A model generated the notes under the pieces. That model saw only the letters and a program-made list of their open reading frames with translations, searched no databases and was not told where the DNA came from. Shown here piece after piece: positions 18,876 to 46,572 of a stretch of 64,000 nt of DNA. Both the position numbers and the translations under genes were made by a program. The first letter of the stretch is position 1, and each line of letters begins with the position of its first letter. This DNA is from Escherichia coli (GTDB lineage: Bacteria; Pseudomonadota; Gammaproteobacteria; Enterobacterales; Enterobacteriaceae): NCBI RefSeq assembly GCF_003018115.1, contig NZ_CP027457.1; one strand, written 5' to 3'.

Positions 18876-18996
18876 TTCATTGCTCCAGACGAATGATATG
18901 ATGCAACCATGATGTGATTGCATACCGAAATGGTACTATTGAGTATTTATCCAGTAGGTTACGATGCCATTCCACCCAACTGGTGAGGCATCAAGG

Positions 18997-19263
18997 ATGT
19001 ACAGCAAATACGACGAGGCGCAGTTTCACTTGAGACTTCCGCATGAACTCCACGCGAAAATTAAGCAGCGTGCGAAGATGAATAACAGGTCGCTGAACTC
19101 AGAGATAATTGCAGCGATTGAAGAATCATTGGCTAAACAAAGCTCTGCACCAGTTTACATTGACGATGCAGAGCGTATGGCAGAACAACAATCCGATATA
19201 GTTAAGAAAATGGTTTTTGAAACGCTTAAGACCATGTATAGCAATAATAAAAAGGAAACATAG
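18997..19263 (+). CDS. mnt: Mnt-like ribbon-helix-helix repressor (immI-type)
   Basis: Translation MYSKYDEAQFHLRLPHELHAKIKQRAKMNNRSLNSEIIAAIEESLAK... resembles P22 Mnt/Arc family. Confidence 0.65.
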   Translation: MYSKYDEAQFHLRLPHELHAKIKQRAKMNNRSLNSEIIAAIEESLAKQSSAPVYIDDAERMAEQQSDIVKKMVFETLKTMYSNNKKET

Positions 19264-42526: not shown

Positions 42527-43344
42527 GCAATCCCCCTGTCTGCAAACTTCCCTTCCCGAACTCCCGTTAACGAGTCTTCCCTCAGCAGGTAATCAAAATC
42601 AGCCGTCCAGCCCGTGTCGTTGTCTCCGAAGTAAAACGGCTTGGCCTGATGCACAAACGCCCTGACATACGCTCTGAAACCGTCCACATTTGGCGTTTTC
42701 AGTTGCGGGATGATTTTCTTCAGGCGGCGTTTGCGTTTCTCGTTGACCGCAACAGCGTGTGGCAGTCTGTCACCGACTTCGGTGTTGTAGGCGTTCAGGA
42801 AGGATTCGTAGTCGATTCGTTCTGCCTTGCGACGTTCAGGTTTAACCTGCCCATCGCCACCCCCGTTAGGGGGTAAGGGGGTATTTGTATTTATTGTCTT
42901 TTGTATATTGTCTTTTGTGTTTAGCTGACTTGGCTTATACCCATTAGCCGACTTGGCTAATGTTTTATTAGCTGTTTTAGCTAATGTTAAGCTGTCATGG
43001 CTAATCCACTGAGAAACCACCTTGTTCACTCCGATTTTCACGCCATCAGCAATGAGGAATTTACGCTCGATAAGCTGGCGCTTGGCAGCGCAAACATGAG
43101 TGTGATGAATACCTGTCATGGCTGCTATCTGCGTGTTTGTGAGTCGATCCATCGGCTTATTGAATCCGTATGTCTTGCGCATGATAGCGAGCATCACCTT
43201 CATCTGCCGGACGGTTAAATCAGCCATCAGCAGACTGTCGGTAATCTCGTTAGCAACGCGCATGAAACCATCTTCGGTATCTGCCACGCGATGCTCCACG
43301 ACCTCCAGTTGAGGCCTGTAATCAGCTAACTTAACGACGCCCAT
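42523..43344 (-). CDS. Replication initiation protein with lambda O-like N-terminal domain (P22 gene 18-like)
   Basis: ...[36 protein letters not shown]... resembles the lambda O N-terminus; iterons inside the gene. Confidence 0.85.
42875..43000. repeat. ori: Replication origin: iterons and AT-rich tract inside the O-like gene
   Basis: Direct repeats TTAGCTGACTTGGCTTA / TTAGCCGACTTGGCTAA / TTAGCTGTTTTAGCTAA / TTAAGCTGTCATGGCTAA adjacent to an AT-rich stretch. Confidence 0.7.
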
Positions 43345-43526
43345 GTTTCACTCCTGCTTTGGCTAGTCTGTAAACACCAACAAGGCGCTCTGCGAACGCC
43401 CTGTTATTTGCTGCGGCTACCACTAATCCCTCAGGTGAATCAGGGTGTCGAATCTCTTCTTTTTCCTGGTATTTCTTACGACGTTTTGTCATAATTACTC
43501 CTGTGGATTGATCCAGTCTTTCTACA

Positions 43527-43802
43527 TCAGGCCTCGAAGAATTCGCCGTTCTTCGGGGCTTTTTCTTTTGTCAGCATTCTGGCTACTTTCTTAGCCAGTT
43601 CCGCCAACTCCTCGTCTTCAACACCCCATTCAAGAACAGCCAGAAGCATTCCCATTTTTGGGATGAAGCTGTCTTTCCATCGCGAAATTTGCGATTCATT
43701 AATTCCTAACGCGTCGGCAACCTTTCGCTGGCCACGTACAGCAATTCGATTCAGGATGTTGCTTGTAATTGCATTCGCTTTCTTGCGAGTACTTGTAAGT
43801 TC
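43527..43802 (-). CDS. cII: CII-like transcriptional activator
   Basis: ...GINESQISRWKDSFIPKMGMLLAVLEWGVEDEELAELAKKVARMLT... resembles lambda CII; start approximate. Confidence 0.8.
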   Translation of the reverse strand, partial: ELTSTRKKANAITSNILNRIAVRGQRKVADALGINESQISRWKDSFIPKMGMLLAVLEWGVEDEELAELAKKVARMLTKEKAPKNGEFFEA

Positions 43803-43862
43803 CATATGTAAGTATTTCCTTAACAAATAAGAAGTTATGCGCATCAACTTATGCGCGTTGTA

Positions 43863-43908
43863 TTCCCGCATTTCGGCGGGAATGAGGACCATGACTGTTA
43901 AAGAGCGG
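43863..43908 (-). promoter_or_regulatory. nutR (boxA CGCTCTTTAACA, boxB TTCCCGCCGAAATGCGGGAA)
   Basis: boxA/boxB pair just downstream of cro on the transcribed strand; same boxB as the nutL candidate. Confidence 0.6.
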
Positions 43909-43913
43909 TGTTA

Positions 43914-44108
43914 CTATTTGTTTTTCTTGTTGCTTGGGAAAGGACGAACTTCCTCTCCAATCACACTGCCATCAGGCTTTACCGTAACCATGATGTTACG
44001 GCCTGCCAGAATGGCCTTGCTGATAGCGCACTGGATTACACCAAAGTCACTGGCTGCTTTAGCCTGTCCATGGATTTTGGCGTAATCGGCAAGTGTCATT
44101 CGAATCAT
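43914..44108 (-). CDS. cro: Cro repressor
   Basis: Translation [62 protein letters not shown] resembles lambda Cro; GGAG RBS. Confidence 0.85.
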
Positions 44109-44139
44109 ATGCACTCTCCGTTATTAACCATGAACAAAG

Positions 44140-44203
44140 AATACTACAGGTATTCAAAGCAATCAATACTCAGGGTATTTTTAGTTTAAGTACCTTAGCT
44201 ATT
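44140..44203. promoter_or_regulatory. Right operator OR1-OR3 with divergent promoters pR/pRM
   Basis: 15-bp palindromes AATACTACAGGTATT (44140-44154), AATACTCAGGGTATT (44165-44179) and weaker AGTACCTTAGCTATT (44189-44203); pR -35 TTGATT / -10 TATTCT on the minus strand. Confidence 0.65.
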
Positions 44204-44214
44204 AGAATTAAGCT

Positions 44215-44931
44215 ATGGAAAATAAAAAATCACTGACGACAGAACAGCTCGAAGACGCTAAGCGGCTTAAGGCTTTGTATGAGTCAAAAAAGAAAGAATT
44301 GGGAATAACCCAATACTCAATCGCTGATGAACTGGGTATCACCCAAGGAGCGGTAGGGCATTATCTTAATGGCAGAAACGCGCTAAACGTTGAGGTCGCA
44401 TCTGGTTTTGCACGTTTGTTGCAAGTCTCAATTGCTGATTTTAGCCAGTCAATTGCTGCCAAGGTTGCAGAACAGGCAGAAAGCCTTAAGAGCGATGCCA
44501 ACGTAAGGTATGCAGGGGAATACAGAGCAGGAAAGAGGTATCCGGTGTTAAGCAGTATCCAGGCTGGCTCGTGGTGTGAAGCATGCGAACCATACACCAT
44601 TAAAGACATAGATGTTTGGCTTGAGTCTGACGCGCATATTCAAGGTAATGCGTTCTGGCTTAAAGTGGAAGGTGATTCAATGACGGCACCGGTTGGGTTA
44701 AGCATTCCAGAGGGAACATTCGTTCTTTTCGATACCGGAAGGGAGGCGATCAACGGCAGCTTGGTCATAGCAAAACTTTCTGACTCTAACGAAGCAACAT
44801 TCAAGAAGCTGATAATCGACGGCGGAAATAAATACCTCAAGGGACTTAATCCTGCATGGCCTCTCGTGCCAATCAATGGAAACTGCAAGATTATAGGCGT
44901 TGCAATTGAGACAAAACTAAGGCTGGTTTGA
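44215..44931 (+). CDS. cI: CI repressor (HTH plus LexA-like S24 autocleavage domain)
   Basis: 238 aa; ...LTTEQLEDAKRLKALYESKKKELGITQYSIADELG... and C-terminal ...AFWLKVEGDSMTAP... resemble lambda CI. Confidence 0.9.
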   Translation: MENKKSLTTEQLEDAKRLKALYESKKKELGITQYSIADELGITQGAVGHYLNGRNALNVEVASGFARLLQVSIADFSQSIAAKVAEQAESLKSDANVRYAGEYRAGKRYPVLSSIQAGSWCEACEPYTIKDIDVWLESDAHIQGNAFWLKVEGDSMTAPVGLSIPEGTFVLFDTGREAINGSLVIAKLSDSNEATFKKLIIDGGNKYLKGLNPAWPLVPINGNCKIIGVAIETKLRLV

Positions 44932-44945
44932 TCACGCAAGGGGCG

Positions 44946-45317
44946 ATTATGGTTGGAACCGCTATAGCAAGCTTTTTTGGGATGTTGGCAATCTCGACAA
45001 TTTACGGCTTAGCGCATGCTTTTATTGCGAAATCTCTATCAGAAAAAATAAGCCAGGCTTGGGCGCATAGATCAGCTCGTTTCATGATTCTGGTGATCAT
45101 AGCAATACAAGGGATATCTGCATTTATCCTCTATGGATCAAGCTTATACCTATTGTATCAAGGCGCGACATTTACGCCTTACACCAGTGATTACGGAACT
45201 CTATACGATGGTAGTGAAGACATCACTGTGGCTTGGATCGTCTTTGGTTTATCTATGGCCGTGTCTGTTGTAGCAGACATCATTAAGGTAATTCTCGTCT
45301 TAACCTTCGCTGACTAA
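44946..45317 (+). CDS. Small multi-pass membrane protein in the cI operon (rexAB position); function unknown
   Basis: About 123-aa ORF with 3-4 predicted TM helices beginning just after the cI stop; precedes OL/pL. Confidence 0.55.
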   Translation: MMVGTAIASFFGMLAISTIYGLAHAFIAKSLSEKISQAWAHRSARFMILVIIAIQGISAFILYGSSLYLLYQGATFTPYTSDYGTLYDGSEDITVAWIVFGLSMAVSVVADIIKVILVLTFAD

Positions 45318-45403
45318 CCTATAATCCCGGCAGCAATAGCTATCGGGATCCACTTCACATATCCCGCATAAAAAGCACTGAACAAGCAGACACCGAAAAA
45401 ATA

Positions 45404-45490
45404 AATATCCTTTGTATTCATTTGCTTATCATTATTTCACCAAAAATAAATACCTTGGGTATTTACACAATAAAATACCTACAGTATTCT
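45404..45490 (+). promoter_or_regulatory. Left operator OL1-OL3 and pL promoter
   Basis: AATATCCTTTGTATT (45404-45418), AATACCTTGGGTATT (45449-45463), AATACCTACAGTATT (45474-45488); -35 TTTACA / -10 TATTCT overlapping OL1. Confidence 0.65.
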
Positions 45491-45536
45491 TTAGCCATCA
45501 GCAGGACGCTGGAAGCCAAACGGAACAGATTGGCAG

Positions 45537-45577
45537 GCTCTTTAACATTGATGGGATTGTCCCGCCGAAATGCGGGA
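45537..45577 (+). promoter_or_regulatory. nutL (boxA GCTCTTTAACA, boxB TCCCGCCGAAATGCGGGA)
   Basis: boxA closely matching the rrn-type consensus followed by a hairpin, between pL and N. Confidence 0.6.
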
Positions 45578-45684
45578 ACCAAAGAGTAGTTGGCTTTGGG
45601 GTGACGTGAAGTGCAGCTGCACGACGGCAACCGGAAGATAAGCACCCGGCGCGTCACCGCCAAAGTCAATCATCGGAGGTCAAC

Positions 45685-45990
45685 ATGACAGTAGTCATTA
45701 CATATCTGGCTGACGATAACGCCAGAAATCGCCGCAGAGCACGCAGACAGGCTCAACGTGAACAGGCAATGCAAGAGCAGCGACTGGCGCGAAAAATTGC
45801 GCTAAAGCTCTCTGGTTGCGTCAGGGCAGACAAAGCAGCATCACTCGGAAGCCTTCGCTGCCAGAAGGCAGAAGAAGTCGAGCGTAAACAGAACCGTATT
45901 TACTACCGCAAGCCACGCAGTGAAATGGGTGTGACATGCTCAGGCCGCCAGAAGCAACGCGGAAAATCAATTCCAGCTTATTACGATTGA
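45685..45990 (+). CDS. N: N antitermination protein
   Basis: Arginine-rich motif NARNRRRARRQAQRE near the N-terminus; C-terminus ...GVTCSGRQKQRGKSIP resembles lambda N. Confidence 0.8.
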   Translation: MTVVITYLADDNARNRRRARRQAQREQAMQEQRLARKIALKLSGCVRADKAASLGSLRCQKAEEVERKQNRIYYRKPRSEMGVTCSGRQKQRGKSIPAYYD

Positions 45991-45998
45991 GGTTAATG

Positions 45999-46265
45999 AT
46001 GAAATTCAAATTGAACGATGAAGTTAAATGGTCTAGCTCATCAAACGGTGTAACGAAGGTAAAAATCGGGTTTATCGTTGAGGTGATTCCTCCTGGTGTC
46101 AACGTAAAAAAATTCGAACTAGGCCGTCTGCTAGATGCACCTGGCCTTCCGAGGAAAGAAGAGAGCTATATAGTTTGTGTAGGTCCAAGACCAGGATCTC
46201 GTGCCAAGCCAAAATATTACTGGCCGCGAGTTAATAACCTGCGTCGCTTACACGATGACAAATAG
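45999..46265 (+). CDS. Hypothetical early protein
   Basis: About 88-aa ORF immediately after N. Confidence 0.4.
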   Translation: MKFKLNDEVKWSSSSNGVTKVKIGFIVEVIPPGVNVKKFELGRLLDAPGLPRKEESYIVCVGPRPGSRAKPKYYWPRVNNLRRLHDDK

Positions 46266-46320
46266 AAGTGAGTATCCTTGTTTTACTTTTTCGCAGCAAA
46301 CCACTTATTTGAGGTGAGAT

Positions 46321-46572
46321 ATGGAATTTCATGAAAGTGCGATTTGTGATTTTCGCGCTAACGCAAATTCAGTAAAACCACAGCCAATTGCAGTTCTTTT
46401 TAAAACAATGGGTGCGTGGGCTGTTTTATGCTTCGCCGCTGATGACACTGACGCAAGAATGGCAATAGGCCAAGAGATGGAGATGGACCCGACAAACGAT
46501 GAATTCATAATTTATGGCGCTCCATCTAATTACTTACTTGATACCTGCAACATTTACAACAAGGCTGCCTGA
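46321..46572 (+). CDS. Hypothetical early protein
   Basis: 83-aa ORF. Confidence 0.4.
   Translation: MEFHESAICDFRANANSVKPQPIAVLFKTMGAWAVLCFAADDTDARMAIGQEMEMDPTNDEFIIYGAPSNYLLDTCNIYNKAA

Follow-up and report, generated by a model that had tools for sequence, protein, structure and literature searches.

A lambdoid immunity region, very probably of HK620 type, in a P22-like prophage of Escherichia coli

The stretch of DNA analysed here (the window) comprises 64,000 nucleotides of Escherichia coli contig NZ_CP027457.1 and contains a phage control region, in which cro is divergently transcribed from cI, operators and promoters lie on both sides of cI, and an N gene and two nut sites are also present. 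The genes at its core are the following:

43914..44108, minus strand: cro (64 aa), lambda-Cro fold; Pfam PF09048, E 3.6e-26, 91.4 bits against a cut-off of 32.7
44215..44931, plus strand: cI (238 aa), Pfam HTH_3 and Peptidase_S24; recognition helix QGAVGHYLNG
44949..45317, plus strand: hkaS (122 aa), membrane protein in the rex position; PHROG 6534 (unknown function), E 2.4e-79; named hkaS in the HK620 record

Cro matches lambda Cro structures (E 5e-19), and CI shows a full-length match to lambda CI 3bdn (E 2.9e-52) with the Ala-Gly, Ser and Lys residues conserved (QAG, GDSMTAP and FKKL, respectively). The gene hkaS is presumably co-transcribed with cI. PADLOC returned nothing for hkaS, for a 35-aa ORF considered below or for the ORF that follows N, and hence no defence role was assigned to them.

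The record of phage HK620 (GenBank AF335538, 2001), whose features are sequence-based annotations, already marks OR1-3, OL1-3, pR, pL, nutL, nutR, cI, cro, N and hkaS. In the window, the palindrome AATACCNNNGGTATT occurs seven times in 64 kb with up to two mismatches, compared with 1.79 expected matches, and none of 100 shuffles reached seven. Six of the seven matches cluster at 44140-44203 and 45404-45488, and the corresponding operator 17-mers occupy 44139-44204 (OR) and 45403-45489 (OL). Scored with a matrix derived exclusively from phages of Serratia, Hafnia and Erwinia (16 sites) that share the CI and Cro recognition helices, these six window sites ranked 1, 2, 3, 4, 6 and 7 among 63,984 positions. 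The operators and promoters are arranged as follows:

44138..44166, minus strand: pR, with -35 TTGATT (44166-44161), 17-nt spacer and -10 TATTCT (44143-44138); read from the sequence
44139..44155, no strand: OR1, GAATACTACAGGTATTC; matrix score 18.6, rank 3 of 63,984; OR1 in the HK620 record
44164..44180, no strand: OR2, CAATACTCAGGGTATTT; centre 25 bp from OR1; score 18.2, rank 4; OR2 in the HK620 record
44188..44204, no strand: OR3, AAGTACCTTAGCTATTA; weaker; 24 bp from OR2; score 13.9, rank 6; OR3 in the HK620 record
44203..44208, plus strand: putative pRM -10, TAGAAT; runs from OR3 base 16 to 6 nt short of the cI ATG
45403..45419, no strand: probable OL3, AAATATCCTTTGTATTC, as assigned in this analysis; 45 bp from OL2; score 12.5, rank 7
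45448..45464, no strand: OL2, AAATACCTTGGGTATTT; perfect palindrome; matrix rank 1; OL2 in the HK620 record
45462..45490, plus strand: pL, TTTACA-17-TATTCT; 9/12 in the promoter scan; pL in the HK620 record
45473..45489, no strand: OL1, AAATACCTACAGTATTC; matrix rank 2; OL1 in the HK620 record

The initial annotation of this DNA had proposed three AATACC-N3-GGTATT operators on each side, pR and pL with a -10 TATTCT overlapping operator 1, and a cI gene starting almost at the pRM transcript start as in lambda. All six sites were recovered with exactly the sequences it had quoted, both -10 hexamers were read in the sequence and coincide with pR and pL of the HK620 record, and the cI ATG, 6 nt past the pRM-like -10, reproduces the lambda geometry with a presumed transcript start. 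The pR -35 has TTG in common with OR2, while its -10 lies inside OR1. The promoter scan did not call pR, which has 8 of 12 consensus matches and falls below the threshold; it was retained as a predicted promoter on its position, its lambda-like geometry and its coincidence with pR of the HK620 record. The -35 of pRM is weak (TTTAGT) and the cI ATG has no Shine-Dalgarno sequence. Set side by side with lambda, whose pRM -10 is TAGATT, the distance from -10 to ATG agrees to the base, and the order TA(G/C)AAT, then 6-7 nt, then ATG is kept in phages OS31, Pocitis76 and Eho49. This layout of OR3, pRM -10 and ATG, which is identical to lambda's and kept across four phages, would fit a leaderless cI mRNA from a pRM that CI at OR2 may activate.

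The third operator on the left is the one site placed differently in the HK620 record, where OL3 corresponds to window positions 45426-45442, 22 bp from OL2. This placement would give a lambda-like spacing and would leave 45403-45419 as the start of a small minus-strand gene, as a 35-aa hydrophobic ORF (45314-45421, minus strand) begins inside it. However, 45426-45442 has a matrix score of -22.8, which is the window mean or background, and 3 of its 17 columns vary among 34 cassettes of this immunity type (imm620), compared with the high score and 0 of 17 variable columns at 45403-45419; furthermore, in phage OS31 of Serratia the third OL site also lies 45 bp from OL2. As for the ORF, it has no family match and a poor ribosome-binding site, and all three of its differences from HK620 alter the amino acid. 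With this evidence, the position given in the record is unlikely, and OL3 was probably misplaced there, the true site being 45403-45419. The 35-aa ORF was also considered as a small toxin-like gene and is probably spurious, with no Pfam, PHROG or PADLOC match.

Compared with lambda, the region combines a shared architecture with different half-sites and recognition residues. CI and Cro are clear homologues of the lambda proteins with the same folds, both phages have three 17-bp operators per side (spaced 25/24 bp here and 24/23 bp in lambda), the overlaps of OR2 with the pR -35, OR1 with the pR -10 and OR3 with the pRM -10 are the same, and the distance from the end of OR3 to the cI ATG is 10 bp in both. 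Within the half-site, positions 2, 5, 6 and 7 (A, A, C, C) are shared, whereas positions 1, 3 and 4 differ (AAATACC here and TATCACC in lambda). The recognition residues differ as well, with changes from lambda of Y26I, S28C, N31S and H35L in Cro, and S45G, G46A, A49H, L50Y and F51L in CI. Neither TATCACCGC-type operators nor the lambda CI and Cro recognition residues were found, and by these sites and residues the immunity is different from that of lambda. In addition, hkaS takes the place of rexAB, and the distance between OR and OL is 1.28 kb, compared with 2.36 kb in lambda. OL3 is atypically spaced: it lies 45 bp from OL2, where about 20-24 bp would be usual (20 bp in lambda).

The same immunity region is present in HK620, mEpX2, HK630, HK140, HF4s, HZ41, phi296, phi367 and some Stx2c phages. 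DNA identity is 99.3% over 1838 bp with HK620, 99.7% with mEpX2 and 99.9-100% with phi296 and phi367, and values of 99.3-100% were also obtained with HK630, HK140, HF4s and others; towards HK620 and mEpX2, identity of 99.3-100% extends from nutR to the N arginine-rich motif. A three-way alignment of the window with HK620 and mEpX2 shows no difference at any operator, promoter or nut base, including those of all six operator 17-mers, and so OR1-3, OL1-2, pR, pL, nutL and nutR are the same, as is hkaS. CI and Cro are both 100% identical to the mEpX2 proteins; Cro is also 100% identical to HK620 Cro, while CI is one amino acid off HK620 CI (A66T, outside the recognition helix). There are also differences from these two phages: N diverges from HK620 N after aa 64 and from mEpX2 N after aa 30, cII differs from the HK620 and mEpX2 proteins by 1-2 aa, and the prophage that carries the region has virion and early-left genes unlike those of HK620 and mEpX2. 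The HK620 immunity region was reportedly treated by Clark, Inwood, Cloutier and Dhillon in 2001 (J Mol Biol 311:657).

These identities decide the question of novelty. The initial annotation had claimed a distinct operator specificity, implying a new and uncatalogued lambdoid immunity, and the first part of this claim stands: the operators are unlike lambda, 434 and P22/21 sites, and the relatives' matrix found no HK620-type site in the lambda, imm21, N7 or ECP1 loci. A literature search, moreover, turned up no biochemical characterisation (binding, footprinting or transcript mapping) of this immunity type, which would fit a specificity not seen before. On the other hand, the initial annotation had held its reading to be incompatible with identity to a characterised immunity type, and such identity is what CI and Cro show with mEpX2. 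That phage has been handled as its own immunity group; it forms multiple lysogens with lambda, HK022 and mEpX1, and has been maintained together with lambda and HK022 as double and triple lysogens (PMC3442831). Besides, the operators are already marked in AF335538 and the module is present at no less than 80% coverage in 145 of 5426 complete E. coli genomes. A new specificity is thus highly improbable, and by the identity to HK620 and mEpX2 it is already refuted. Because the region is 99.3% identical to that of HK620, in which the sites are annotated, and its CI and Cro are identical to those of mEpX2, the specificity is, as judged from these matches, known and not new, and is ordinary and common in E. 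coli prophages. We conclude with high confidence that the locus is an HK620-type ("imm620") lambdoid immunity region in a P22-like E. coli prophage, most likely working like the lambda switch.

Conservation of the operators across related phages bears on whether they would serve as binding sites. In Serratia, Hafnia and Erwinia phages the operators are conserved together with the recognition helices, although the intergenic DNA is otherwise diverged, and among the 34 imm620 cassettes 0 of 60 columns at operator positions 2-6 are variable, whereas the remaining intergenic DNA, about 246 nt, has 44 variable columns. According to the published Cro code, Gln H1 pairs with A+2, Ala H3 with A+5 and Lys H6 with G-6 (PMC6649833), and the Cro helix QCAISK with the half-site AAATACC provides all three pairings (Gln/A+2, Ala/A+5 and Lys/C+6, that is, G-6). 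That the six palindromes reflect chance symmetry of AT-rich intergenic DNA and not repressor-binding sites, as might be suspected from the AT-rich motif and from two weaker matrix matches at 1269-1304 in AT-rich host DNA (judged to be chance and rejected as extra CI sites), is scarcely credible in view of the shuffles, the lambda-like register of the sites with the promoters, their retention in three other genera, their invariant core positions and their agreement with the Cro code.

Outside the operators, the region is bordered by the nut sites and N, which are located as follows:

43864..43881, minus strand: nutR boxB, UCCCGC-CGAAAU-GCGGGA, stem extending to 8 bp; inside nutR of the HK620 record
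43896..43907, minus strand: nutR boxA, CGCTCTTTAACA, 7 nt past the cro stop; read from the sequence and annotated in HK620 and mEpX2
45537..45547, plus strand: nutL boxA, GCTCTTTAACA; read from the sequence; leader and boxA identical to phage 21 nutL
45560..45577, plus strand: nutL boxB, identical to nutR boxB; the corresponding phage 21 sequence is CTCAACCTAACCGTTGAG
45685..45990, plus strand: N (101 aa), PHROG 271, E 7.4e-36; first gene of the pL operon

The boxB sequence TCCCGCCGAAATGCGGGA has exactly two copies in the window, 0 being expected; its fold consists of a stem of 6-8 bp and the loop CGAAAU. The proposals that nutL and nutR carry an identical boxB and that N has a matching arginine-rich motif were both borne out, with the exact 18-mer present twice downstream of a boxA and the motif DDNARNRRRARRQAQREQ at aa 10-27 of N (45712-45765); the same motif is encoded by 66 of the 70 viral contigs that have this nutL. 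N matches Pfam N_peptide at 18.0 bits, short of the 27.9-bit cut-off. When 43000-46500 was scanned against Rfam with E values up to 1 allowed, the sole match was a meaningless one to a eukaryotic scaRNA, and no curated family covers these nut sites. Homology with heteroimmune phages breaks off at 43906/43907, in nutR boxA, and homology with these phages and phage 21 resumes at 45486-45490, the end of pL. The immunity-specific cassette is 43908-45489, with the nut/N module lying outside it; this module is common to heteroimmune phages and also brackets P22-type cassettes. The initial annotation, which had taken the immunity region and the nut sites as one unit, had the anatomy right, but the cassette and the nut/N module are two units that can be separated.

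N and its boxB show a second exchange, this time relative to phage 21. The pL transcript is identical in the two phages from its start through boxA, N is 63% identical to phage 21 N, and in an alignment with N of imm21, HK620, mEpX2, CUS-3 and N7 its aa 33-101 are of the phage 21 type and nearly identical to it. In contrast, the two N proteins have unrelated sequences over aa 1-32, a stretch that contains the arginine-rich motif, and boxB, although again a 6-bp stem with a hexaloop, has the loop C-GAAA-U where phage 21 has CUAACC, and a different stem as well. Only boxB and N aa 1-32 are replaced, the flanking DNA being homologous. By this alignment N is a mosaic in which a phage-21-type body bears an arginine-rich motif of HK620 type, boxB having been exchanged along with it. 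Neither the CUAACC hexaloop nor the N21 arginine-rich motif was found, and the N-boxB specificity probably differs from that of phage 21, whose N peptide with boxB is structure PDB 1NYB. The HK620 record describes its N as "similar to H19B and 21 N"; H-19B N was rejected as the source of the motif, its own being RSRRRER, which is different.

A broader proposal can be put forward at even chances. It holds that DDNARNRRRARRQAQREQ and boxB (6-bp stem, C-GAAA-U hexaloop) would form a recognition pair distinct from the solved lambda, P22 and phage 21 pairs, with a phage-21-like hexaloop, a true GNRA core and a coordinated swap of the motif and of boxB, the latter at two sites 1.7 kb apart, on a phage 21 backbone, and also that this switch family would use an OL3 45 bp from OL2, the OL3 annotation of HK620 being wrong.

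The close homology of CI and Cro with the lambda proteins, the lambda geometry of OR3, -10 and ATG, the agreement with the Cro code and the conservation of the operators together give good support to a lambda-style switch of CI and Cro combined with antitermination by N at the nut sites. The identity to HK620 and mEpX2, the homology to lambda and the conservation and geometry of the operators are seen directly in the sequence, whereas binding, transcript starts, cooperativity, looping and antitermination are deduced and would run along the following lines. CI dimers would bind the 17-bp operators, of consensus AAATACC-N3-GGTATTT, and CI at OR1/OR2 and OL1/OL2 would shut off pR and pL, whose -10 TATTCT lies within operator 1. 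CI at OR2 would adjoin the weak pRM and probably activate it, probably yielding a leaderless cI-hkaS mRNA, while the overlap of OR3 with the pRM -10 would allow repression by Cro and autoregulation by CI. Since CI appears to be a LexA-like, self-cleaving protein, the prophage should be inducible through RecA-mediated cleavage. The arginine-rich motif of N would then bind the boxB hairpin shared by nutL and nutR, and N together with boxA and Nus factors would render RNA polymerase resistant to terminators.

The value of the locus as a discovery is small, the operators, promoters and nut sites having been in GenBank since 2001. Nevertheless, the analysis assigns the prophage to an immunity group and predicts homoimmunity with HK620, mEpX2 and two Stx phages, phi296 and phi367; it also corrects a probable mis-annotation of OL3 in the HK620 record. 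For the evolution of CI/Cro specificity, the region offers a natural lambda-family variant in which three positions of the half-site and a few recognition residues are changed. Finally, the nut/N module is a clear case from nature in which an RNA hairpin and the peptide that binds it have been replaced together.

The region at 43863-45700 is the immunity module of coliphage HK620 (imm620, comprising cro, cI, hkaS and operators), and its novelty is therefore nil. It matched HK620 (AF335538) over its full length at 99.3% identity, mEpX2 at 99.7%, and phi296 and phi367 at 99.9%, with further matches in HK630, HK140, HF4s, HZ41, 611R6 and two Stx2c phages; at least 80% of it was covered in 16 phage records and in 145 of 5426 complete E. 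coli genomes. At homologous places, the HK620 record marks OR1-3, OL1-3, pR, pL, nutL, nutR, tIMM, cI, hkaS, cro, cII, pRE and N. The features read in the window are as follows.

43864-43881, minus strand: boxB of nutR (exact search)
43914-44108, minus strand: cro
44166-44138, minus strand: pR, TTGATT-17-TATTCT (read from the sequence)
44140-44154, 44165-44179 and 44189-44203: operator palindromes on the cro-cI side (pattern search)
44215-44931, plus strand: cI
44949-45317, plus strand: hkaS, a 122-aa membrane ORF
45404-45418, 45449-45463 and 45474-45488: operator palindromes on the pL side (pattern search)
45462-45490, plus strand: pL, TTTACA-17-TATTCT
45560-45577, plus strand: boxB of nutL (exact search)
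45685-45990, plus strand: N, containing DDNARNRRRARRQAQREQ

In a three-way alignment of the window, HK620 and mEpX2, no base differs in the operators, promoters, boxA, boxB or the arginine-rich motif of N. Cro is 100% identical to that of both phages; for CI the identity with mEpX2 is 100%, and A66T is the one difference from HK620. mEpX2 has been described as its own immunity group, and double and triple lysogens with lambda, HK022 and mEpX1 have been made (PMC3442831). Because of this identity, the operator specificity that the initial annotation regarded as distinct is, judged by annotation and by cross-immunity grouping, that of the HK620/mEpX2 type. The observation itself was confirmed, and its mechanistic reading is sound. 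The four strong operator sites match the quoted sequences exactly, both pR and pL have the proposed -10 TATTCT, the N ORF contains the arginine-rich motif, and nutL and nutR share one boxB. A literature search found no biochemical study of a CI of the window/mEpX2 type. The surrounding prophage is P22-like, with virion genes nearest to those of IME10, APC_JM3.2 and HZ41, and imm620 is found in HK97-like, lambda-like and Stx phages as well.

Allowing up to two mismatches, AATACCNNNGGTATT was matched seven times in the 64-kb window versus 1.79 expected by chance, a count reached by 0 of 100 dinucleotide-preserving shuffles, and six of the seven matches fall within two short non-coding stretches. 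Serratia phage OS31, Hafnia phage Pocitis76 and Erwinia phage Eho49, whose DNA is ~67-73% identical to the cro-cI coding DNA of the window, keep the CI helix (I/V)(T/S)QGAVGHYLNGRNALN and the Cro helix Q(C/T)AISKA and carry AATAC(C/T)-N3-GGTATT sites at OR and OL within diverged inter-operator DNA. A weight matrix trained solely on 16 sites from these three phages ranked the six window operators 1, 2, 3, 4, 6 and 7 among 63,984 positions, and gave no score of 10 or above anywhere in the lambda, imm21, N7 and ECP1 loci. Two weaker matches, at 1269-1285 (14.8) and 1288-1304 (8.6), spaced 19 bp apart in an AT-rich stretch that seems to be outside the prophage, are probably due to chance. Across 34 imm620 cassettes (the window and 33 viral contigs), none of 60 operator positions 2-6 is variable and just four operator columns vary, at position 7 or 8, where the matrix accepts C or T; the other intergenic DNA (~246 nt) has 44 variable columns.

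CI matches lambda CI (3bdn) over its full length (E 2.9e-52); it has an HTH_3 and a Peptidase_S24 domain and retains Ala-Gly as cleavage site and Ser and Lys as catalytic residues. Cro falls in the lambda Cro family by Pfam (PF09048, 91 bits) and by its matches to lambda Cro structures (E 5e-19). Side by side, the switch layouts are nearly equal to the base: operators are 17 bp in both, the OR1-OR2 and OR2-OR3 centre spacings are 25 and 24 bp (24 and 23 bp in lambda), and in each phage exactly 10 bp separate the end of OR3 from the cI ATG. The pR -35 begins with the last TTG of OR2 and the -10 lies within OR1; pR scores 8/12, under the promoter scanner threshold, and its position coincides with the HK620-annotated pR. 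Upstream of cI, the -10 TAGAAT (TAGATT in lambda) starts at OR3 base 16 and stops 6 nt short of the ATG in both phages, and the window ATG has no Shine-Dalgarno sequence. As TA(G/C)AAT followed by 6-7 nt and ATG is also found in OS31, Pocitis76 and Eho49, this conserved arrangement suggests a leaderless cI transcript. The half-site AAATACC shares positions 2, 5, 6 and 7 with lambda TATCACC but differs at 1, 3 and 4. Compared with the lambda Cro helix QSAINKAIHA, window Cro retains Gln H1, Ala H3 and Lys H6, which in the Cro code pair with A+2, A+5 and G-6 (PMC6649833), and all three pairings are satisfied by the window half-site.

The OL3 of the HK620 record corresponds to 45426-45442 (HK620 L001 3064-3080), which contains no operator-like sequence; its score of -22.8 is close to the window mean (-23.0), and 3 of its 17 columns vary. 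The site at 45403-45419 (HK620 L001 3041-3057) scores 12.5, is invariant, and sits 45 bp from OL2 and 23 bp further from pL than the annotated OL3; the third OL site is 45, 29 and 21 bp from OL2 in OS31, Pocitis76 and Eho49, respectively. Because of this score, the invariance and the OS31 offset, and the background score of the annotated 17-mer, the sequence argues for placing OL3 at 45403-45419. An unannotated 35-aa hydrophobic ORF, MNTKDIYFFGVCLFSAFYAGYVKWIPIAIAAGIIG (45314-45421, minus strand), is convergent with hkaS and has its start codon inside this proposed OL3; no family match was found for it, its ribosome-binding site is poor, each of its three differences from HK620 is nonsynonymous, and it is probably spurious.

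The 18-nt boxB TCCCGCCGAAATGCGGGA has exactly two copies in the window versus 0 expected, and folds into a stem of 6 bp (nutL) or 8 bp (nutR) with the loop CGAAAU. In the nutR transcript (43800-43915, minus strand), boxA CUCUUUAACA is predicted to pair with UUGUUAAGG ~70 nt downstream, surrounding boxB together with another hairpin, GCGCAUAAGUUGAUGCGC (-29.9 kcal/mol, z -2.9; 1 of 200 shuffles did as well). At nutL (45537-45590, plus strand), a GCUCUUU-AAAGAGU pairing is predicted, with AAAGAGU directly 3' of boxB. Such pairings could sequester boxA, and they resemble the alternative NUT structures reportedly seen in H-19B. WP_001470152.1, a 43-aa RefSeq 'hypothetical protein' (45542-45673, minus strand), runs antisense to nutL and to the leader of N and is very likely a false gene call in a region of regulatory RNA.

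N, labelled only 'hypothetical protein' in RefSeq, is a three-way mosaic: it shares aa 1-32 with HK620 and mEpX2, and the phage-21-type part spans aa 33-101. The N of HK620 departs from it after aa 64 and that of mEpX2 after aa 30. Mosaic N proteins whose N-terminus varies are already known from P22-like phages (PMC2629481). Phage 21 (lambda h434 imm21) has an identical pL leader and boxA and nearly identical N aa 33-101, but its boxB is CTCAACCTAACCGTTGAG. Since the replacement is limited to boxB and N aa 1-32, there is good comparative evidence that the arginine-rich motif and boxB form a matched pair. The phage 21 boxB has a CUAACC hexaloop, in which UAAC mimics the GNRA fold and a C-C pair closes (PDB 1NYB; PMC12550061); by analogy, C-GAAA-U in the window would have a genuine GNRA core, with a C-U mismatch closing it.

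Homology with heteroimmune CUS-3, N7 and ECP1 reaches 43906, inside the nutR boxA, and returns at 45486-45490, the pL -10. These breakpoints delimit the specificity cassette as 43907-45489, cro through OL1, and on this alignment the nut/N module is separate from it. A boxA-N(8-20)-boxB scan of viral contigs returned more than 120 stretches, and the DNA between the sites in 58 viral contigs with both nut sites fell into four classes: imm620 (33 contigs), ~1088 bp (20), 1674 bp (4) and 2924 bp (1). The N7 cassette belongs to the 1088-bp class, and its repressor carries the P22 C2 recognition helix. Of the 70 viral contigs having window-type nutL, 66 encode the motif core of the window's N (the remaining four are cut off or unresolved under the ORF rule), with at least three distinct N C-termini.

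The multi-pass membrane protein HkaS (PHROG 6534) is encoded between cI and OL, the position of lambda rexAB, in 33 of 33 imm620 viral cassettes and is absent from the Serratia relative; a PADLOC search gave zero matches, and hkaS is a candidate lysogen-expressed exclusion gene. Elsewhere in the window, the 'ant moron' position of P22-like phages, flanked by the gene for a gene-16-like ejection protein and by the tailspike gene, holds two ORFs; no antirepressor gene was seen.

18964-19263, plus strand: Arc/Mnt-like ribbon-helix-helix ORF, 99 aa
19298-19819, plus strand: 173-aa ORF with a lipoprotein-type signal (LLVGC)

The minor interest left in this module lies in the proposed re-assignment of OL3, in a natural specificity variant of the lambda family, and in the putative N-boxB pair.
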